The notes under the pieces: generated by a model
Databases searched by the model: none
Told to the model about the DNA's origin: nothing
What the model saw: the letters and a program-made list of their open reading frames with translations, nothing else
Program-made: the position numbers and the translations under genes
IMG/VR virus record: IMGVR_UViG_3300017987_000047
DNA: 64,000 bases
Reading direction: 5' to 3' (one strand)
Origin: a virus
Taxonomy: Duplodnaviria > Heunggongvirae > Uroviricota > Caudoviricetes
Shown here: one piece after another, positions 3,587 to 51,003 of the stretch
How the letters are laid out: every line of letters starts with the position of its first letter
Numbering within the stretch: position 1 is the first letter of the stretch

Positions 3587-4778
3587 ATGGGTAGAAAGAA
3601 AAAACCTGAATCAACAAGCACTAAATTATACAAATTTAGAATCTATCCAACAAAAAATCAAATCAAGAAATTTAATCAGTTTTTTGGTACTCATAGATTC
3701 ATCTATAATTATTTTTTAGCTCTCAAAAAAGATCATTATAAAGCAGGATTAAAATTCAGCTCCTATAAAGAAGATCAAGCGGACTTAACTCAATTAAGAA
3801 AATCTTTAGATTGGATGAAAGAGATTCATTCTCAAGCTTGTCAAGCAGCCCTAAAAGACTTACACGATGCTTACAAAAACTTCTTTAATCCAAAATTAAA
3901 AGCAGGACCCTCGATTCAAAAAGAAAAATATTTCTGAGAAGTCTTTTAGAATCCCACAAGGGATTACAGTAACTAAGAATATCTTAAAAATGCCTGCTTT
4001 CATAGAAGGAATCCGAATCAAAAGACATAGAAAAGTTAATGGAAAGATTGCTTATTGTACTATTAAATTAAAACCCTCAGGAAAATATTTTGCTTCGATT
4101 TGTTTCCATGATGAATCAAAACCAAAAATCAAAAAGACTAAAAATGAAGTAGGATTAGATTTTGGAATCAAAAATGCTTTGATTGAGGATAACGGAACAA
4201 AACATGATAAACATGAGAATTTAGATAAATATCACAAGAAACTTAGAAAAAACCAAAAGAAATTGTCAAAGAAAAAGAAAGGATCGAATAATTATCAAAA
4301 ACAAAAACTAAAAGTCGCTAGATGTCATGAAAAGATAACTAATGCTAGAAAAGATAAATTAGACAAAATCTCAAAAAAGATAATTGACGAAAACCAAGCA
4401 ATTTATCTTGAAGATTTAACCGCCCAATTTATGATTAAGAATAAAAACCTAGCATTCTCTGCATCTAATACTGCAATTAATATGTTAAAGTCAATGCTAG
4501 TTTATAAATCGAAATGGCATGGACGAGAACTCGTTCTCGTCCCCCCAAGAAACACATCAAAAACATGTCATATTTGTGATTGGGTTTATAAAGATCTTGA
4601 GCTTTCTGAAAGAGACTGGACTTGTTCAGTTTGTGGAACTTTTCATGATAGGGATATCAACGCAGCTTTAGTTATTAAGAAAAAAGGAAAATTACGTAGG
4701 GCAGGGACTGTCCAAAATCATGCTTTTCTATTACCAGAGGACCCACCTAAAGTGGTAAATCCAACGGTTATTAATTAG
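3587..4778 (+). pseudogene. tnpB: IS200/IS605 TnpB RNA-guided nuclease, frameshifted near nt 3908
   Basis: YKFRIYPT HTH; alternate frame restores PRFKKK; RuvC residues in GLDFG, YLEDL, DRDINAA; CxxC...CxxC. Confidence 0.9.
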
Positions 4779-11946: not shown

Positions 11947-11985
11947 TTTCCCAAACCTTTCCCAAGCCTTTTTCTATCTTTAGAA

Positions 11986-12058
11986 CGCACCCGGTGGGAT
12001 TTGAACCCACGATCAGAGGGTTAGAGCCTCCTGCATTAGGCCACTATGCTACGGATGC
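11986..12058 (-). tRNA. Amber suppressor tRNA (anticodon CUA)
   Basis: Full cloverleaf; GGAGG-CT CTA AC-CCTCT anticodon arm; TTCAAAT T-loop; no CCA. Confidence 0.88.
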
Positions 12059-12069
12059 ACTTGTTATAA

Positions 12070-19415: not shown

Positions 19416-19429
19416 AAGATATTCCTTAG

Positions 19430-19518
19430 AGGAACGGGTGGGACTCGAACCCACAAATCGCATAAACGACTACTGGTTTTCAAAACCAGGCCCCGCACCT
19501 ACTGGGGTCAACCGTTCC
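19430..19518 (-). tRNA. tRNA-Ser(TGA), atypical D-arm
   Basis: CTGGT-TT TGA AA-ACCAG; long variable arm; GGAACGG/CCGTTCC acceptor. Confidence 0.85.
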
Positions 19519-24343: not shown

Positions 24344-24961
24344 TTATTTTAAGTCGTCAAGAAACTTCTTGATTTTCTTAGCGAAATTCCATATACCTTC
24401 TCTTAACCCCATTACGTACTCACGATCGATCGTCGGTATTTGGAAACATTGTTCATGACAAGCTTTAACTAATTTTCTAGTTTCGTCCCCGTATTTGTTT
24501 TTGAGAAATTCAGGATCTTGTATTGCAAAGTCTTGAATGTTATCCCAACGATCCACCAACTTAATTAGTTTTGCTTCTAGTGGGGCGTTTCTCATTCGCT
24601 CACACATCGCGAACTTACGCCATTTCCTTTTTCCTTTCAAACCTTTATCATTTGTCAACCAAAGTACCTGAGAGAGAATTGTATGAGCATCTTTCCCAAA
24701 AACTTCGAATTCTTCTAGCCGCATTTCGGTATCTTCGATAACATCATGCAGTAGAGCTGCTGCCACCATTTGGTAGTACCGTTTTGTTTCTTTAATCCCA
24801 TTTTCTTTACGATACCTATTTAATTCTTCCCAAACAGAAAGAGCTACTTTCTTGGGATGAGTAAAGTAAGGTTCTCCAGAAAACTTTCTTTTTTGTCCTT
24901 CATGCCAATACTCCCCTAATTGGAGAGCAGTTTCAATCATTTGATGTTCCGGTAATTCCAT
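24344..24961 (-). CDS. Stand-alone RelA/SpoT-type HD hydrolase (Mesh1/SAH-like)
   Basis: HEGQKRK.SGEPYFTHP, ALLHDVIEDT, IKLVDRWDN. Confidence 0.85.
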   Translation of the reverse strand: MELPEHQMIETALQLGEYWHEGQKRKFSGEPYFTHPKKVALSVWEELNRYRKENGIKETKRYYQMVAAALLHDVIEDTEMRLEEFEVFGKDAHTILSQVLWLTNDKGLKGKRKWRKFAMCERMRNAPLEAKLIKLVDRWDNIQDFAIQDPEFLKNKYGDETRKLVKACHEQCFQIPTIDREYVMGLREGIWNFAKKIKKFLDDLK

Positions 24962-25298: not shown

Positions 25299-25577
25299 TC
25301 AAATACTCTCTTTCGTCGCTTTTCCAAAAATAGCTTCAAATTCAATTCGTCGCATATGAAACCAAAAAAATTGCTCATCTTCAAGCATTAAAATTGCATA
25401 GGTATTTGGTTTCGGCCTACAAATTAACTTTTCGCCTTCTAGATAACCAACTGTATGGTCTAAAAAATAATTCTTATGTGCTATTAGGTCATCCGTTCTG
25501 CATGAGAAACTCCGAAAGTCGCAAGCCCGCCACCGAGAAAAATCAAAAGAGTCAGCATAGAGTTTAGGAAGATCCAT
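25299..25577 (-). CDS. Hypothetical protein
   Basis: ORF in operon. Confidence 0.55.
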   Translation of the reverse strand: MDLPKLYADSFDFSRWRACDFRSFSCRTDDLIAHKNYFLDHTVGYLEGEKLICRPKPNTYAILMLEDEQFFWFHMRRIEFEAIFGKATKESI

Positions 25578-25578
25578 T

Positions 25579-26208
25579 TTAATCTTTTAGAAATTCCATC
25601 TCCAGGTGAGGGTAGTGTTCTTCAGCATGACAATTTGCACAAAGTAAAACACATTTGTCAGCCTCTTTTAATATTGAATCCCATTTCCGGGTTAAATTTC
25701 GTGCTGATAATGGAAAATTTTTATGTTTCATATGATGGAGAGTAAGACATCTTAAATCCTTTTCTTCACAGATAGAGCACTCTCCCCCTTTCATCCTAAT
25801 TATTTTTTCTCTTCGATTTTTCATTTTTCTCTTCATTAAGAAATTTCTTTGACAAGTTTTCGAACAATACTTTTTCATTGGAACAAAAACAGGGTTTCCA
25901 CAAAATAAACATGTCCCCTCTTTTGGAAAGCGAGAATGTATTTCAAAAGATATATGTTTTTTTGAGTGGCAATTTACACATAATAAAACACATTTTTTAG
26001 CTTCCTTTATAATAATCTCCCATTTTCTAGATGCTATAACATCTACTGAGAGCTTTAATCTTTTTTGAGCTGGGTCTTTATGGTGAAAAACTAGAGCAGC
26101 TAGGTTTTTTTGGTATCCACATGCGGAACATTTATGGCCTTTAAGTTTGACCAGCTTTAATTTCCTATCTATTTTTTTCTGCTTCCTTTGTTCCTCGTAC
26201 TTCGTCAT
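25579..26208 (-). CDS. Tandem double-HNH endonuclease
   Basis: Two CxxC...HH...KCVLLCxNCH units joined by CLFC/YCSKTC. Confidence 0.85.
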   Translation of the reverse strand: MTKYEEQRKQKKIDRKLKLVKLKGHKCSACGYQKNLAALVFHHKDPAQKRLKLSVDVIASRKWEIIIKEAKKCVLLCVNCHSKKHISFEIHSRFPKEGTCLFCGNPVFVPMKKYCSKTCQRNFLMKRKMKNRREKIIRMKGGECSICEEKDLRCLTLHHMKHKNFPLSARNLTRKWDSILKEADKCVLLCANCHAEEHYPHLEMEFLKD

Positions 26209-26257: not shown

Positions 26258-26504
26258 CTCGCCCGGTGGGATTCGAACCCACGACCCTCGGATTCGTCAC
26301 ACTATAGCTTTCGCTACCACTTACGTGTTTGTGCGCTGGACTTTCTCTTCGCCTTATCCTTTTTGGACTTAGGCGGCCCCCGTCAAGTCTCTACACCTTC
26401 CTCATTTCTAAGGCTTGGCTCGGGATTGCCATCAGCATTACCTGTTAAGGGTTCCCCGAATTTGAGGGCATTGCACGGTACTCTGGCCACTGAGCTACGG
26501 GCGA
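26258..26504 (-). pseudogene. tRNA pseudogene containing a 5'-truncated group I intron
   Basis: TCGCCCG/CGGGCGA acceptor with D and T arms; intron core AAATTCGGGGAACC, GGCAATCCCGAGCCAAGCC, GGAAGGTGTAGAGACTTGACG, AAAGTCC; 5' anticodon strand and P1 absent. Confidence 0.85.
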
Positions 26505-26552
26505 TTACTTTTATACGCTAAATTCTCCTTTCATTCTTAAAACTTGTTTTAA

Positions 26553-26632
26553 TGGGCCGGGCAGGATTTGAACCTGCGTAGGCTAACGCCAACGGGGTTA
26601 GCCGAACGCTCTGCCAATTGAGCTACGGATGA
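26553..26632 (-). pseudogene. Chimeric anticodon-less tRNA (Asn-like 5' half, Tyr-like 3' half)
   Basis: TCATCCG...TTCGG-CT|AA-CCCCG...CCGGCCCA; acceptor and anticodon stems do not match. Confidence 0.75.
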
Positions 26633-26655
26633 TTATTTCTCTTTTCTCGAACTCA

Positions 26656-26747
26656 TGGGAGACGGAGGAATCGAACCCCTACACCTATTCCACTGTTCTA
26701 CTTGGGTTAGGTACCAGATCTACAGTCTGGCGAACAGATCGTCTCCC
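26656..26747 (-). tRNA. Atypical tRNA-Tyr(GTA)-like RNA lacking a D-arm
   Basis: GGGAGAC/GTCTCCC-A acceptor; CCAGA-CT GTA GA-TCTGG; TTCGATT T-loop; 10-nt D region. Confidence 0.75.
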
Positions 26748-27804: not shown

Positions 27805-28191
27805 TCATAAAAGTTTTAGATGGCCGGTAATAAGATCTACTTTATTACCTCCCGCTGGCCCAACTGCAACAGCTGTTTTAGTAGCTTTCCCTCCAAATTC
27901 GGTTTTGCCTGCATCTTCGATAAGCGAAACTGGAAGTCCTTCATCTTTTGCTTTCTGGTATATTTCAAGGAGTTCTTCTTCGCTCTCTACTCCAACAGCT
28001 ATTTTAGTAAAGGAGTTGGAAACCCAAGAAAGCATTTCTTCATTAAGGTATCCAATTGTAATAGTATCTTTCTCTACCTCTTTAATGCGGTTGAAGAAAA
28101 TGGCTAAGGATGCGTGGGCTCCCTGAGCCACCATTTTTCCTTTGCGCATTTTTAAATCTTTTCGTAATACTATTACTTGTTTACTTTCCAT
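27805..28191 (-). CDS. pth2: Peptidyl-tRNA hydrolase type 2
   Basis: KQVIVLRKDLKMRKGKMVAQGAHA, DAGKTEF, AVGP. Confidence 0.93.
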   Translation of the reverse strand: MESKQVIVLRKDLKMRKGKMVAQGAHASLAIFFNRIKEVEKDTITIGYLNEEMLSWVSNSFTKIAVGVESEEELLEIYQKAKDEGLPVSLIEDAGKTEFGGKATKTAVAVGPAGGNKVDLITGHLKLL

Positions 28192-39436: not shown

Positions 39437-41743
39437 GTGAGACTTAAAAAAGAAGACAGGACATTTGTAAGCTCCGAGCCAAAAAAGAAGCAACGATTCC
39501 GGATTGGGGACGAGAGTGTTATCCTTAGGATTATCCGAGGAAAATTGTACTCGGACCCAATCCGGATCATCGTGCAAGAGTATGCATCTAATGCGAGAGA
39601 CGCACACCGGGAAGTTGGCAAAGCAGATGTCCCAATTGAAATCAAGCTTCCTAACAGGATGGAGTCAACCTTAGAGATTAGGGATTGGGGGCCGGGGATC
39701 TCTCCAGAAAGGATGGATGAGATCTTTACCCAATATGGAAAAAGCACAAAACGGGATTCCGACGAACAAACTGGGGGCTTTGGAATTGGCGCAAAATGTG
39801 CTTGGGCCTACACTGACCAATTTTCAATCACAACTACCGTCGACGGCGTCAAATACTTTTATATTGCAACCCTCGACGAACAGAGTGACGGAGCACTATT
39901 ACTCCAACATCAGGCAGAAACTGACGAACCAAACGGGACATCCATCTTAGTCCCGGTTAAGCATATGGATTTTAGAGAGTTTGAGAAAAATGCTTTTTGG
40001 GTAACTCAATATTGGGACCCAAGGCCTACAATCAAAAATTCGCAATCTTATTCTTACAACGAACCTGAAAAATCTGAAATCTTATTAGAGCATGAGCACT
40101 TCACATTATTTAATACCCGGAACTATTACGGCGGTGGAGATCAGTATGCAATCCTGGATGGTATCCCATATAAGCTAACCCAAAACTCAATTGCTGACCT
40201 AACACAAGAACAGAAACAATGTTTTAATTATCGGTTTAACTTAAAATTTAGTATTAATGATGTTACTGTTTCTGCCAATAGGGAAGCATTGTTTTATGAC
40301 GCACACACACAAAAAACAATTCGGGATGCCTTAGACTTTATTCTACAAAAAATTAAGGAACAGGCGGAAGAGATTTTATCGAATGCAAAATCTTATTGGG
40401 AAGCTTTAGAAATCTTTGCATACCTCAAGAATTCCTTTATCTATCAATATACCTTACCTAAGGCGGATTGGCGTGGTGTAAAAATAGAAGACTTTAATAT
40501 TTCTATACCGTATTCCTCGGAATGGAAAACTATAGTACACGCCACTAACTATAGGGAGTGGGAATCCGAACTAGATGGAGGAGGTAAAGAAAAATTTGAG
40601 AAGTTGAAGTTGACGGAAGTCTCTCATGGAATTACGCCGAATCGGTATTCTTCCTTACCTATAACTGCCTCAACGCTTTTTGTTTTGAACGATACTGGGA
40701 AAGAAAAACCCTGTAGAAGAAGGTTGCGAACGCTTCTTCATGAACATAAAAAGGATGACATTTTCCCAGATATCTATATTTTTACGTTTTATAAAGCTAA
40801 GCCAGGCCAAAAGGATAAGAAAAGGTGGCAGGAGGTTGAGTTTGAGTTGGGGGAAACGAAGGAAACAAAAAAATGGAAGAAAAACGTTAACTTTTCTCTC
40901 CTGAACGCAACTAAACTAAGTACGGTCGCCCCAACAAATATAAGAAGAAAATCCGGAAAATCGGGAACTAATAAATCTACTGTCGAAGCATTTTCAGTAT
41001 CAAAAATACATAGGATTAACTCAAATACTGTAGACAGATCGCCGGTTAAAGTTAATTTGAAAGAGGTGACGGGGTATTATATCCTTTACCAGGAGAAGAC
41101 TTTCTTATTGGGAACGGGAATAGACGACTCCTACAAATATGGAGCGGCAAGATCGCTCAAGGCACATTTAGACTTTATGGAGATTGATTGGACAAAAACA
41201 GGAATTTACGTTTTTCCAATTAGGTCCAAAAAGAGAGCGGTAGAATCAAAATTAAAGTCCCTTGACCTTGCCGTAAGAAGAAAGATTAAAACTTTTGATA
41301 TGACGGAGATCGCAAAATTCCAGCAGATCTCCAAGGGAAAGATAGAGTCGCATGATTTCCCAAACTGCCTTAGGACTCTTTCCCCAAGATTTGAGGAGAT
41401 AGAGGATAAAGAAAGTTCAATTTTTAAGGCTTTAAAAAGTTATAGAACGGTGCTAGCCGGAGAACGAAGGGAAGAGCCGCAAGGGTATAGTTTATATAAG
41501 CTGAGGTCTTCAGCTTTCCCAAAGTTGCCTGATCTTAAGAAGGATGATGTGGACGAAATCACAGAGGTTAGGGCTCTGATAAGGTCTTTCACCCACACTT
41601 TTCCTTTACTCTATTCTCGCTATGATTCTTATGAATCCCGTAGCACTGCTTTTGTAAGCGATGCTATCCTTTATATCAATTTGAAAAACAAACTTTTAAG
41701 AGAAGAGGAGGAAAGAAAGAAAAAGGCCGGGGGTAACGATTAA
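39437..41743 (+). CDS. rIIA: rIIA-like protein (N-terminal GHKL ATPase)
   Basis: LYSDPI...EYASNARDAH, DWGPGI, STKR, GGFGIGAK; adjacent to rIIB. Confidence 0.85.
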   Translation: MRLKKEDRTFVSSEPKKKQRFRIGDESVILRIIRGKLYSDPIRIIVQEYASNARDAHREVGKADVPIEIKLPNRMESTLEIRDWGPGISPERMDEIFTQYGKSTKRDSDEQTGGFGIGAKCAWAYTDQFSITTTVDGVKYFYIATLDEQSDGALLLQHQAETDEPNGTSILVPVKHMDFREFEKNAFWVTQYWDPRPTIKNSQSYSYNEPEKSEILLEHEHFTLFNTRNYYGGGDQYAILDGIPYKLTQNSIADLTQEQKQCFNYRFNLKFSINDVTVSANREALFYDAHTQKTIRDALDFILQKIKEQAEEILSNAKSYWEALEIFAYLKNSFIYQYTLPKADWRGVKIEDFNISIPYSSEWKTIVHATNYREWESELDGGGKEKFEKLKLTEVSHGITPNRYSSLPITASTLFVLNDTGKEKPCRRRLRTLLHEHKKDDIFPDIYIFTFYKAKPGQKDKKRWQEVEFELGETKETKKWKKNVNFSLLNATKLSTVAPTNIRRKSGKSGTNKSTVEAFSVSKIHRINSNTVDRSPVKVNLKEVTGYYILYQEKTFLLGTGIDDSYKYGAARSLKAHLDFMEIDWTKTGIYVFPIRSKKRAVESKLKSLDLAVRRKIKTFDMTEIAKFQQISKGKIESHDFPNCLRTLSPRFEEIEDKESSIFKALKSYRTVLAGERREEPQGYSLYKLRSSAFPKLPDLKKDDVDEITEVRALIRSFTHTFPLLYSRYDSYESRSTAFVSDAILYINLKNKLLREEEERKKKAGGND

Positions 41744-41776
41744 GCGTTTTATTTCTTTGTTACGAGGAGACGAAAA

Positions 41777-42757
41777 ATGTCCGAGTCCATTCCTTACACT
41801 ATGACATCCGATAGCTTGTCTGCCTTTGTTAACAACAAGCAAGTTGTTATCCGAAAAGGGGACGATCATTTCGATCTAATCGTGGAAGCGATCAAACAGG
41901 AAAATTGGGCCGAAGTTGCTAAGCTGGTAGATAAAGCTGAAGCAATTGCGAAGTACGGTGGCGATAGCTTTGAGGTCAAGGATGGTGTAATTAAAATTGA
42001 CGGGGAGGAGATCCCCCCAGTTCTAACAACACGTATCCTTGAGTTTATGAAAGATAAGATCGACGCAAACCGTCTGATTCTTTTCTGGCGCAGCCTCAAG
42101 AAGAACCCTAATCACGAAGCGGTAAAGGACCTTTACGCTTTTCTTGAGAAGAATGGCCATCCCATCACGGAAGACGGGTGTTTCATTGCGTACAAGCGAG
42201 TTCAGGAGGACTTCACTTCGGTACATGATAGAAAAACAATGAATGCCGTTGGGACAGAGGTCACAATGCCGCGTGAGGAGTGCGACTCCAACCGGGACAA
42301 AACTTGCTCTACCGGTTTACACGTGGCAAACTTCAATTACGCAAAGTCTTTCTATGCGGGAGGGAGACTTCTAAATGTTAAGGTCAACCCTGAAGATGTC
42401 GTAGCAATCCCCGTTGATTACGACCAAGAAAAGATGCGGGTATGCAAATACTTTATCGTGTCTGAAACTGAAGAGGAGTACCGGAAACCTTACGTAGATA
42501 CTTCGGACATCACTCAGAACGATGATGACTACGATGATGACTACGATGATGACTACGATGATGATGACTATGATGATGATTACGACAACGATGCAGCCGA
42601 GGAAGAAGAAGGCGCCGACGCGGAAGAAGAACTCTCTTCAGGAGAGATCCAAGAAGCCTTAGATCGTAACGAAGGCGCAGTTCAGCAAACGGCGGAGGAG
42701 CTTGGAATCCATCGCTCAACCCTATATCGGCTTCGGAAGAAGCACGGCTTACTCTAA
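41777..42757 (+). CDS. rIIB: rIIB-like protein with acidic linker and Fis-type HTH
   Basis: PITEDGCFIAYK, CSTGLHV, VNPEDVVAIP.DY..KMRVCKY; LGIHRSTLYR. Confidence 0.88.
   Translation: MSESIPYTMTSDSLSAFVNNKQVVIRKGDDHFDLIVEAIKQENWAEVAKLVDKAEAIAKYGGDSFEVKDGVIKIDGEEIPPVLTTRILEFMKDKIDANRLILFWRSLKKNPNHEAVKDLYAFLEKNGHPITEDGCFIAYKRVQEDFTSVHDRKTMNAVGTEVTMPREECDSNRDKTCSTGLHVANFNYAKSFYAGGRLLNVKVNPEDVVAIPVDYDQEKMRVCKYFIVSETEEEYRKPYVDTSDITQNDDDYDDDYDDDYDDDDYDDDYDNDAAEEEEGADAEEELSSGEIQEALDRNEGAVQQTAEELGIHRSTLYRLRKKHGLL
42521..42585 (+). repeat. Coding repeat (GATGATGACTAC)n encoding DDDY
   Basis: Three perfect 12-mers plus degenerate copies. Confidence 0.9.
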
Positions 42758-49465: not shown

Positions 49466-49927
49466 ATGGCGTTAACCCTTGCTAGGATGCAAATGAAAAA
49501 GAACTTTCAAGTTAATATTTATATTCCAAACAAATACCAGTGCTTTGCTGATCTTTCTCGGGATAAGAACCATTGGGGGGAATGGCTTGACGCTGTCGAA
49601 CGTCTGGTTGGGCACAGAATTGAAAGAGAAGGTCTTGCGTTCATCCGGAATGACTTTTTACGGGGTGATTCCGCCCTTAAGTCTGCTTTAACGCTTCAAC
49701 TTGCGGGTATCCGGGAATACTATAGAAGTATCAATTTTGAGTTTTCCGATGAAAAGATTTGGGACTTTACCCCAGAAATAATGGAACTGCTTTTTGCTGG
49801 GAAAACGATAGAAGAAGCAGCAGAAAGTCTTAAGGGAAAGGTTGCAGCGATAAAAATAAGTATGCTCTTCTACTGTGCTCTTCTTGGTTGTATTACTGGC
49901 CTAATTCTTATCAAAGCATTGGTTTAA
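49466..49927 (+). CDS. Hypothetical protein with C-terminal TM helix
   Basis: Hydrophobic C-terminus. Confidence 0.6.
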   Translation: MALTLARMQMKKNFQVNIYIPNKYQCFADLSRDKNHWGEWLDAVERLVGHRIEREGLAFIRNDFLRGDSALKSALTLQLAGIREYYRSINFEFSDEKIWDFTPEIMELLFAGKTIEEAAESLKGKVAAIKISMLFYCALLGCITGLILIKALV

Positions 49928-49929
49928 AA

Positions 49930-51003
49930 ATGGAAGAAAACGAAACCCACGTCATCTTTGAAACTTTAACGGGCAGCCGCCTATATGGGACGGACCGGCC
50001 TGGTTCCGATTACGATTATAGAGGAGTCGCGCTGCCCCCATTTAAAACTTTCTTTGGGCAAGGGAAGTTTGAGCAGCTAGAGGATAAAAAATCTGATAGG
50101 GTAATCTACAATTTGGTTAAATTTACCCAACTAGCACTTAATGCTAATCCAAATATTATCGAGTTACTTTTTGTTCCCGAAAAATATTGGAAAACTGCTT
50201 CGCCAATCTGGCGCCATATTCTAAAATTTAGAGAGCTTTTTGTTTCTACTAAATGCAGATTTACTTTCTTAGGCTATGCTTATAGTCAGTTAAACAGAAT
50301 TAAAACGCATCAAAAATGGCTTCAAAATCCTCCGGAGAAGCCCGATCGGAGGGAAATGGGTCTTTCTCTCGAATCCAAGATTCAGGAAGATGCAATTAAG
50401 GCATTGAAAACAATCCCCGCTTCTGTTTTAGGGGACAACTTTACTGTGGCAATTCAAAAGGCCATGGAAGTTTCTTTAAACGCAGAACAGCAAGCTAGTG
50501 GTATTCAAGCGTTGCAAACAATCCCCGCAGAAATTTTGCGGGATTCGCTAAGAAACGTAATTCAAAAAGAGATTGAATACTACGATAAAAAGAAAGCTTG
50601 GGATTCTTATAGGGATTGGAAAGAAAACCGAAACCCAGCCCGATTTAAGCTTGAAGAGCAATTCGGGTATGATACGAAGCACGCAATGCATCTTGTGCGG
50701 CTCCTTCGAATGGGGAAAGAAATTATAAAAACCGGACAAGTTATAGTAGACCGCCGGGAAGTTGATGCTGACGAGCTAAGGGAAATTCTCAAGGGGGCTA
50801 TGACCTATGAGGAGCTAATCGCTTATGCCGCAAAAATGGAAAAAGAAATCGTAGAATATTATGATAAAAGCCCTCTTCCACGTAAACCTAAAATTGAAAA
50901 GGTAGATCGCCTTTTGTTAGAAATCTTTAGCGAATTCTATTCAATTGATTTGGAGTTAGCTGAAACTGCCGTGCGGCGTGCAAACGAGGAATTAGGAAGA
51001 TGA
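49930..51003 (+). CDS. Pol-beta family nucleotidyltransferase (RlaP/YcgL-like)
   Basis: GSRLYG...SDYDYRG; NPNIIELLF; YDTKHAMHLVRL. Confidence 0.88.
   Translation: MEENETHVIFETLTGSRLYGTDRPGSDYDYRGVALPPFKTFFGQGKFEQLEDKKSDRVIYNLVKFTQLALNANPNIIELLFVPEKYWKTASPIWRHILKFRELFVSTKCRFTFLGYAYSQLNRIKTHQKWLQNPPEKPDRREMGLSLESKIQEDAIKALKTIPASVLGDNFTVAIQKAMEVSLNAEQQASGIQALQTIPAEILRDSLRNVIQKEIEYYDKKKAWDSYRDWKENRNPARFKLEEQFGYDTKHAMHLVRLLRMGKEIIKTGQVIVDRREVDADELREILKGAMTYEELIAYAAKMEKEIVEYYDKSPLPRKPKIEKVDRLLLEIFSEFYSIDLELAETAVRRANEELGR

Follow-up and report, generated by a model that had tools for sequence, protein, structure and literature searches.

The 64,000-nucleotide stretch of DNA from the viral record IMGVR_UViG_3300017987_000047 of IMG/VR, hereafter the window, comes from a phage. 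Among its contents are neighboring homologues of rIIA and rIIB (39437-42757), many small unassignable open reading frames (ORFs), and 13 canonical tRNA genes. Among tRNA genes and short ORFs that follow one another on the minus strand lies a 92-nucleotide gene resembling that of tRNA-Tyr with the anticodon GUA, 18 nucleotides downstream of a tRNA-Asn gene of that strand. The gene is read from 26747 to 26656, and its RNA is the reverse complement of positions 26656-26747. An earlier reading of the stretch from its letters (the sequence-only reading) described this RNA as having acceptor and anticodon (GUA) arms and a T-loop, with a pseudoknot and an enlarged variable arm in place of the D arm. 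The coordinates, the strand, the two arms, and the T-loop are confirmed in the reverse complement (Table 1).

Anatomy of the gene

The acceptor stem can be written GGGAGAC(G)/(C)GUCUCCC followed by the discriminator A73, with G8-C as the eighth pair. The acceptor/T branch is divided 8/4, not 7/5. The D arm of a tRNA usually has a length of about 17-21 nucleotides. Its place is taken here by just ten nucleotides (GAUCUGUUCG) between a 7-base-pair (bp) acceptor stem and the anticodon stem, or by nine if G8-C is counted as paired. The segment CUGUUC of this short region (strand A) is a perfect 6-bp Watson-Crick complement of GAACAG (strand B), exactly as the sequence-only reading had it, and strand B lies within the loop closed by the ACCUA/UAGGU stem of the variable arm. 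A single U separates the anticodon arm from the 5' strand of the variable stem. The 8-bp acceptor stem, the 6-bp pseudoknot, the 5-bp anticodon stem, and the 5-bp variable stem are fully Watson-Crick, and the 4-bp T stem contains one G-U pair. The nested fold calculated with RNAfold includes the 8-bp acceptor stem, the 4-bp T stem, ACCUA/UAGGU, and a CCA/UGG stem.

Some 6-mer complementary to the D region arises in 5.3% of 200,000 shuffles of the variable region, and therefore the match of strands A and B in a single sequence is only suggestive. The form with GAACAG followed by UGG, which is the register of the family described below, arises in 0.02% of 200,000 shuffles. We take the pairing as real because it covaries across the family.

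Table 1. Elements of the tRNA-Tyr(GUA)-like gene, listed in the 5' to 3' direction of the RNA, and selected genes of the window.
Feature	Window position	Strand	RNA position	Remarks
Acceptor stem, 5' strand GGGAGACG	26740-26747	-	1-8	8 perfect pairs with 26657-26664
Linker AU	26738-26739	-	9-10	2 nucleotides
Strand A, CUGUUC + G	26731-26737	-	11-17	abuts the anticodon stem directly
Anticodon arm CCAGA-CUGUAGA-UCUGG	26714-26730	-	18-34	GUA at 26721-26723; U33, G37
Variable-arm stem, 5' strand ACCUA	26708-26712	-	36-40	partner 26683-26687
A/C-rich spacer ACCCAAGUA	26699-26707	-	41-49	precedes strand B
Strand B, GAACAG	26693-26698	-	50-55	6-bp pseudoknot with CUGUUC
UGG	26690-26692	-	56-58	immediately 3' of strand B; followed by AA
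Variable-arm stem, 3' strand UAGGU	26683-26687	-	61-65	followed by GUA
T arm GGGG-UUCGAUU-CCUC	26665-26679	-	69-83	4-bp stem, 7-nucleotide loop
Acceptor stem, 3' strand CGUCUCCC	26657-26664	-	84-91	
Discriminator A73	26656	-		no encoded CCA; 3' flank UGAGUU
PTH2 peptidyl-tRNA hydrolase gene	27805-28191	-		E 3.8e-33; near the tRNA-Tyr-like gene
HD_4-domain protein gene	24344-24961	-		near the tRNA-Tyr-like gene
RlaP-family RNA-repair nucleotidyltransferase gene	49888-51003	+		E 1e-22

A family of related genes with a covarying pseudoknot

Relatives were collected from IMG/VR by scanning for the pattern CTGTARA, a gap of 34-50 nucleotides, and GGTTCRAWTCC; the scan was repeated with ACCA appended, and the matches were filtered by acceptor and anticodon pairing. 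IMG/VR contains at least 66 genes, at least 58 of them distinct, that have exactly ten nucleotides between the 7-bp acceptor stem and the anticodon stem, and a second subtype with eight nucleotides in this position. A similar scan through prokaryotic genomes, with each species represented by one genome, yielded at least 42 more genes, which are bacterial. The assembled sequences comprise at least 59 distinct viral and at least 45 bacterial members.

In every member inspected, the six to seven nucleotides preceding the anticodon stem have their complement within the variable region, and UGG nearly always comes after this complement. Examples of the paired strands are CCACAC/GUGUGG, CUCUAC/GUAGAG, CCCGUC/GACGGG, and CCCUUC/GGAGGG. 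UGG follows strand B in 47/59 viral and 40/45 bacterial members (87/104). The linker is of fixed length and has U as its second position in 53/59 viral and 38/45 bacterial members, and the spacer between the variable stem and strand B ranges from about 4 to 11 nucleotides across the family alignments. A73 is present in every member with the anticodon GUA, G1-C72 in 102 of the 104, and an encoded CCA directly after A73 in most phage members. A37 is found in 100/104 members; the window gene has G37 (4/104).

The window gene belongs to this family: it has the 8-bp acceptor stem, the 4-bp T stem, the two-nucleotide linker, a strand A abutting the anticodon stem, and GAACAG-UGG enclosed by ACCUA...UAGGU. 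Its identity to five relatives is 52-61%, with all helices kept. The closest architectural relative among the matches listed is L476/L477 from a metagenome scan, which also has 92 nucleotides, G37, and UGGAA. At 53% identity, L476 exhibits a compensatory change, CCGUUC/GAACGG+UGGAA, relative to CUGUUC/GAACAG+UGGAA in the window.

BLAST searches of the cultured-phage collection returned no useful match to the window region or the gene, and none to three members with the ten-nucleotide spacing. An exact 24-mer of the gene has no match in IMG/VR or the JGI metagenomes, a pattern tuned to the T arm of the gene gave 0 matches, and a neighboring 302-residue protein is without relatives in IMG/VR. 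Full-text searches of a limited literature collection found no description of a permuted-D-arm design, and a phage or pseudoknot case is absent from a review of natural non-canonical tRNAs. The gene is a newly found member of a large family of non-cloverleaf tRNAs that is apparently unpublished.

Covariation in the viral set was evaluated in an alignment produced with the covariance model R1, which aligned 73 matches (65 distinct). R1 contains nested helices only, and because the pseudoknot was left out of the model, the alignment was not fitted to it. The pseudoknot cells are paired in 92.6% of cases (70.9% when shuffled), 87 cells are doubly changed (20.6 when shuffled), and the covariation score is 0.557 (0.178 when shuffled); the observed values were reached in 0/500 shuffles. 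Sliding the 3' partner by 1-3 columns lowers the pairing to at most 57%. Individual pseudoknot pairs occur as up to six standard pair types, for example UA 28, CG 12, GU 8, AU 6, GC 5, and UG 1. The set of 45 bacterial sequences, collected and aligned separately, has 82.5% of the cells paired versus 70.7% in shuffles and a covariation score of 0.401 versus 0.184 (0/500 shuffles). In both sets, the pseudoknot covaries as strongly as the ordinary stems. Strand A forms 7/7 pairs with its own variable region in 43/58 sequences, compared with 6.6% when paired with the variable regions of other members and 2.9% after shuffling. The alternative architecture proposed in the sequence-only reading is thus supported in viral and bacterial sequences. 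Homologs with compensatory changes, which that reading had named as its test, exist in both of the independently gathered sets, where the pairing is kept and covaries.

The eighth acceptor pair also covaries (GC 42, UA 9, UG 7, AU 4), which fixes the 8/4 geometry. The anticodon stem of the family covaries and is 99.1% paired, and so does the distal variable stem (GCC/GGC, GUC/GAC, ACC/GGU, and others). Of the two variable-region stems put forward earlier, family covariation supports ACCUA/UAGGU, but the inner CCA/UGG has weak support, being 79% paired versus 74% in shuffles. The third pair of the inner stem is unpaired in 25/60 sequences, and UGG is kept even in members whose proposed CCA partner is not.

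A second covariance model, R2, was built from the 45 bacterial-genome members only, with the window sequence excluded. It recognizes the window gene over its full length with a score of 63.5 bits (E 3.5e-13), and its next-best match, among the canonical tRNAs of the window, has at most 20.8 bits. R2 places strand B of the window gene in the correct register, whereas MAFFT and R1 shift it by three nucleotides. The window row counts as unpaired in alignment A2 because its GUAG resembles GUAGGG of the family, which misplaces strand B.

Programs and models for known tRNAs do not recover the family. The 13 tRNAs called by ARAGORN in the window do not include the gene at 26656-26747, and ARAGORN detected no family member in 28 member-bearing loci. 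At the Rfam gathering thresholds the window gene is unmatched, as were all six relatives tested (0/6). RF00005, with a threshold of 29 bits, is absent even at E<=10, where the sole match from the tRNA clan is tRNA-Sec (RF01852) with 24.7 bits against a cut-off of 47 bits. The gene shares with the cloverleaf the acceptor stem and discriminator, the 5-bp anticodon stem, the seven-nucleotide loop with U33, and the T arm with a GUUCRANYC-type loop. Nevertheless, we rejected the canonical cloverleaf (RF00005), since a D stem-loop hairpin is impossible in ten nucleotides and the score test also failed. tRNA-Sec was rejected on its score and because the anticodon is GUA, not UCA. The viral tRNA-like structure Tymo_tRNA-like (RF00233) scored 13.8 bits of the 40 required. 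Such plant-virus structures have a pseudoknotted acceptor arm at the 3' end of an RNA genome, in contrast to the window gene, which is part of a double-stranded DNA phage and combines a plain acceptor helix with a pseudoknot in the core.

The pattern scan of IMG/VR also brought up, as by-catch, a tRNA-like gene of about 77 nucleotides (L001, L022, L062, L073, L122, L128, L133, L138, L140, L156, and L164). It starts with UCUCUGUA-AAGCGUUAUCAGG, ends with GGUUCGAAUCC...UACGGAGA-CCA, and contains an 8-bp acceptor and a 6-bp hairpin, for example ACACCG-UUUGGGG-CGGUGU. It may be another non-canonical tRNA design.

Putative fold and function of the RNA

In the proposed fold, the 8-bp acceptor stem is stacked on the 4-bp T stem and would form the usual 12-bp acceptor branch. 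The D hairpin would be absent, and CUGUUC with the subsequent G, directly 5' of the anticodon stem, would pair with GAACAG in the variable-arm loop. Since the resulting pseudoknot helix is contiguous with the anticodon stem, it could stack on it in the manner of a D stem. By position, strand A would correspond to residues 22-25 of the 3' strand of the D stem and G26; it is mapped to the 3' strand and not to the 5' strand because it runs directly into the anticodon stem. Strand B would correspond to positions 10-15, the 5' strand of the D stem. UGG could be the equivalent of U17-G18-G19, with two guanines able to dock on the T loop, and its spacing from position 10 would be canonical if either residue 16 or residue 17 were missing. 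It is more likely to be this G18-G19 equivalent than the partner of CCA.

The bases of the pseudoknot agree with this assignment. Of the 62 scored viral members, 52 have C-G and 6 have U-G as the pair adjoining the anticodon stem, comparable to G10-C25 or G10-U25. One position further, the seventh of strands A and B, has G opposite A in the window gene and in 30/45 bacterial members, or G opposite U, and resembles G26.A44. We propose that the D arm is circularly permuted and not lost: its loop would be open, with one strand joined to the acceptor stem and the other to the variable arm. Judged from connectivity, "permuted" describes the D arm better than "replaced". The 5-bp variable stem would project like the long arm of bacterial class II tRNA-Tyr.

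We consider it likely that the gene encodes a functional elongator tRNA-Tyr(GUA) with an 8/4 branch, a non-cloverleaf topology, and a permuted D arm. The RNA would be cut from the minus-strand tRNA cluster and its CCA added after transcription, as in its neighbors: CCA is encoded by 0/13 canonical tRNAs of the window, and the flanks of the gene look like theirs. Tyrosyl-tRNA synthetase (TyrRS) would charge it through A73, G1-C72, G34-U35, and the long variable arm, and the charged RNA would read UAY codons. Tyr codons account for 4.0% of the 4,989 codons in twelve window ORFs. The identity set of bacterial tRNA-Tyr consists of A73, the anticodon bases G34/U35, and a long variable arm; the window gene has A73, the anticodon GUA, G1-C72, and the 5-bp variable stem. 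Among the three roles suggested in the sequence-only reading, a functional tRNA, a decoy, and a nuclease-resistant mimic, the evidence favors the first.

The genomic positions of the relatives are consistent with decoding. Members lie within the tRNA clusters of phages and the tRNA arrays of bacteria, usually in places that lack any other tRNA-Tyr. ARAGORN called 336 tRNAs in the 28 member-bearing loci, just one of them tRNA-Tyr. The locus L049 has 36 tRNAs, for all amino acids but Tyr, and the permuted gene beside tRNA-Asp. Nine planctomycete tRNA arrays contain 192 called tRNAs, none for Tyr, and the permuted gene lies among or beside them in 9/9. The complete genome of crAss001 (MH675552.1) has an unannotated gene of the eight-nucleotide subtype at 4148-4235, between tRNA-Lys and tRNA-Phe. 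It is the sole GUA tRNA-like gene of that genome, Tyr is represented among 0/25 annotated tRNAs, and 0/26 RF00005 matches fall at this gene.

The crAss001 genome additionally contains an unannotated 144-nucleotide RF00005 match of 46.6 bits at 96453-96596 on the minus strand (L470), beside the TROVE (Ro60-like) gene Gp96. This match probably represents a tRNA-like module within a Y-RNA-like RNA.

The permuted design also occurs with other anticodons, and in these genes the discriminator changes together with the anticodon. Two genes with the anticodon GCA (Cys) have the discriminator U (L226:1057-1142 and L259:1202-1287, both on the minus strand), and one with UCU (Arg) has the discriminator G (L031:13635-13719, plus strand; 41 bits with R1). 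Both discriminators, U73 for Cys and G73 for Arg, agree with the tRNA identity rules. The Cys version is known from two closely similar sequences of planctomycetes; no Cys-type members are among the 118 IMG/VR loci listed by the scan, and ARAGORN found neither Cys nor Tyr tRNA in the examined stretch of the L226 or L259 arrays. The GCA members are situated in the tRNA arrays of Ca. Kuenenia and Planctomyces sp. SH-PL62, and the L031 phage contig also holds a Tyr version.

Several points weigh against a decoding tRNA. Three-dimensional mimicry, processing, charging, and decoding are what we infer from sequence, for the window gene and the family members alike, and the mapping onto D-arm positions is reasoned from connectivity and conserved bases. 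The conservation of the anticodon loop and T loop in the collected set is partly by construction, because the search patterns fixed both loops. The window gene has the G37 that is rare in the family; because G37 recurs in L476 and in the canonical tRNA-Tyr next to it, we interpret this base as a trait of the lineage rather than a sign of decay. A canonical tRNA-Tyr may exist in the phage genome beyond the 64-kb window. The locus L088 carries a cloverleaf tRNA-Tyr besides the permuted gene, and in L476/L477 a canonical tRNA-Tyr with G37 and CCA is positioned four nucleotides upstream of the permuted gene. All five planctomycete genomes checked (5/5) keep a canonical tRNA-Tyr in a Thr-Tyr-Gly-Thr cluster and have the permuted gene in an accessory array. 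As only 6/151 sampled Planctomycetota genomes have a match, the permuted gene is accessory and not core. Because it does not always replace the canonical tRNA-Tyr, a specialized or non-decoding role is possible.

The tandem of cloverleaf and permuted tRNA-Tyr (L476:835-1016, L477:1526-1707) is found on a freshwater-sediment contig, and both genes have G37 and an encoded CCA. It could be a snapshot of a duplication or a deliberate pairing of both designs.

A tRNA-shaped RNA that does not decode could serve as a decoy or sponge for a nuclease targeting tRNA-Tyr, as a regulatory mimic, or as an amino-acid donor, and would keep its tRNA marks for recognition by host proteins. The canonical tRNA-Tyr genes alongside in some contigs and in the five planctomycete genomes make redundancy in decoding possible. 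PtuAB of Septu and retron-Eco7 cleaves tRNA-Tyr within its variable arm, an extra phage tRNA-Tyr has been discussed as a decoy or supplement (PMC13096335), and a study of tRNA arrays raises non-canonical roles of array tRNAs (PMC8421152). However, the permuted gene is the sole GUA gene in many near-complete phage sets and arrays. Its anticodon loop, A73, and encoded CCA are the needs of a charged decoder, the discriminator shifts with the anticodon in the Cys and Arg versions, and a precise 12-bp acceptor branch is unnecessary for a pure decoy. We therefore regard a non-decoding role as unlikely.

It is still less probable that the transcript loses its extra variable sequence as an intervening or processing element, with strands A and B only guiding the processing and the mature RNA being short and D-armless. 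The same phage does have an interrupted tRNA gene with a group I intron about 100 nucleotides downstream, and covariation proves pairing of the RNA but not pairing in the mature molecule. Nevertheless, Rfam shows no intron or ribozyme family at the gene, the insert has only about 20-30 nucleotides with a conserved UGG and tightly constrained linker lengths, and the variable stem that the removal would destroy covaries itself. Moreover, a D-armless tRNA with a short variable loop has no known precedent in bacterial translation.

A decayed tRNA-Tyr pseudogene with a D-arm deletion and a chance six-nucleotide complementarity can be dismissed with near certainty: single-sequence shuffles do produce such complementarity at the above-mentioned rate and a clearly degenerate tRNA-like sequence adjoins at 26553-26633, but all stems are intact, which the sequence-only reading already held against random decay, the layout with its covarying pseudoknot recurs in at least 59 distinct viral and 45 bacterial sequences at the low identities given above where measured, and the independent model R2 recognizes the gene.

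Genomic neighborhood

The degenerate tRNA-like sequence lies on the minus strand directly downstream of the tRNA-Tyr-like gene. Its 5' end (UCAUCCG-UA-GCUC...) is Asn-like, its D arm is normal and its T arm good, and a 7-bp GGCUAAC/GUUAGCC hairpin with a nine-nucleotide loop occupies the site of the anticodon arm. Its 3' end CCGGCCCA pairs with the 5' end over 3 bp only, and the Rfam tRNA score of 26.1 bits is below the cut-off. The element looks degenerate or chimeric. CGGAUGA at 25495 was tried as a partner for it and rejected as a chance match, since it is inside an ORF and has no T arm. The group I intron (RF00028, 51.9 bits) spans 26314-26549 on the minus strand, and the split tRNA gene lies within 26262-26549. 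The 5' exon UCGCCCG-UA-GCUCAGUGGCCAGAGU... is near 26504, and the 3' exon ...GUGGGUUCGAAUCCCAC-CGGGCGA-G ends near 26262. The next ORF after the intron (25579-26208) encodes 209 residues and has no Pfam match.

Two other tRNA genes of the phage deviate from the common type. The tRNA-Ser(UGA) at 19429-19518 on the minus strand has a D arm like those of tRNA-Sec and allo-tRNAs, with a stem of about 6 bp and a four-nucleotide loop, and exceeds the Rfam tRNA-Sec threshold (49.5 versus 47 bits) despite its UGA anticodon and 7/5 branch. A tRNA with the anticodon CUA at 11985-12059 on the minus strand, labeled Pyl by ARAGORN, is of the amber-suppressor type and belongs to the same phage cluster. Scans for promoters and terminators gave results at chance level.

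Possible role in defense and comparison with known systems

Retron-Eco7 and Septu PtuAB cleave Escherichia coli tRNA-Tyr in the variable stem; the tRNA-Tyr of phage T5 escapes PtuAB through its distinctive variable loop, and T6 through amplification of the tRNA-Tyr gene (PMC13096335, PMC11555353). The resistance of T5 provides a documented selective reason for remodeling the variable region of tRNA-Tyr. With more doubt than conviction, we speculate by analogy that the remodeled D/variable core protects the tRNA from nucleases that cut tRNA-Tyr in the variable arm. It is plausible, though speculative, that this conflict produced a tRNA-Tyr whose D/variable core is rebuilt and whose genes occur almost exclusively in phage clusters and accessory arrays. 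More broadly, though we hold it less likely than not, the permuted-D-arm pseudoknot may be a second long-lived tRNA fold that exists alongside the cloverleaf in bacteria and phages, mostly for Tyr and also for Cys and Arg. This fold would be used in accessory sets, being competent in translation and unrecognized by nucleases such as PtuAB/Septu that cut the D/variable core.

Bacterial tRNAs are held to be cloverleaves without exception in textbooks and recent papers, and a study of 2024 says so explicitly of all known ones (PMC11551756). If the permuted fold is real, more than one chain topology leads to the L-shape, phage and array tRNA sets scored as lacking Tyr may be complete, and a blind spot of tRNA finders and Rfam is exposed. 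The fold would also offer a naturally distinct tRNA-Tyr scaffold for genetic-code engineering and a concrete candidate in the arms race over tRNA-cleaving immunity. Cultured systems exist in crAss001 on Bacteroides intestinalis and in the planctomycetes Thalassoglobus neptunius KOR42 and Neorhodopirellula pilleata Pla100.

The window gene resembles class II cloverleaf tRNA-Tyr(GUA) in the seven-nucleotide loop with GUA and U33, A73, G1-C72, the long paired variable arm, the GUUCGAUU-type T loop, and the location in a tRNA cluster. The class II examples compared were L349:1467-1550, L476:835-920, L088:3253-3333, and the tRNA-Tyr of T5 and T6 (PMC11555353, PMC13096335). Unlike them, the window gene is without a D hairpin and has an 8/4 instead of a 7/5 branch, and half of its D stem is in the variable-arm loop, pairing back across the anticodon arm. 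Like the window gene, T5 tRNA-Tyr is phage-encoded and has a variable region different from that of the host. However, T5 tRNA-Tyr is a cloverleaf with documented resistance to PtuAB, and its link to the permuted design is hypothetical.

The bacterial members are found in tRNA arrays of 16-34 tRNA genes in 5-8 kb that are accessory to the housekeeping set. The passages searched in a study of tRNA arrays (PMC8421152) mention no non-cloverleaf member, and the Tyr slot of these arrays looks empty to ARAGORN and Rfam.

The 12-bp branch split 8/4, the long variable arm, and the occurrence in phage tRNA clusters are shared with (8/4) tRNA-Ser, tRNA-His, and allo-tRNAs (Mukai et al. 2017, PMC5389517). 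These, however, keep a normal and often long D hairpin and remain cloverleaves; D stem-loops are present in all species described there, which include neither a Tyr species nor a pseudoknot. The window gene was not assigned to this class, as it has the 8/4 branch but not the D hairpin. Bacterial tRNA-Sec (RF01852) has in common with the window gene the 8-bp acceptor stem, a 6-bp D-type helix, and a long variable arm, and differs from it in the anticodon, in a T stem of 5 instead of 4 bp, and in a D helix that is a hairpin.

A short connector in the place of the D arm is also found in metazoan mitochondrial tRNA-Ser(AGY) (PMC9427863, PMC7609411). In that tRNA the arm is truly lost, and the small, flexible RNA needs co-evolved synthetases and EF-Tu. 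The window RNA was distinguished from such D-armless tRNAs since, at 92 nucleotides, it is longer than normal, and its helix is rebuilt from a distant strand rather than lost.

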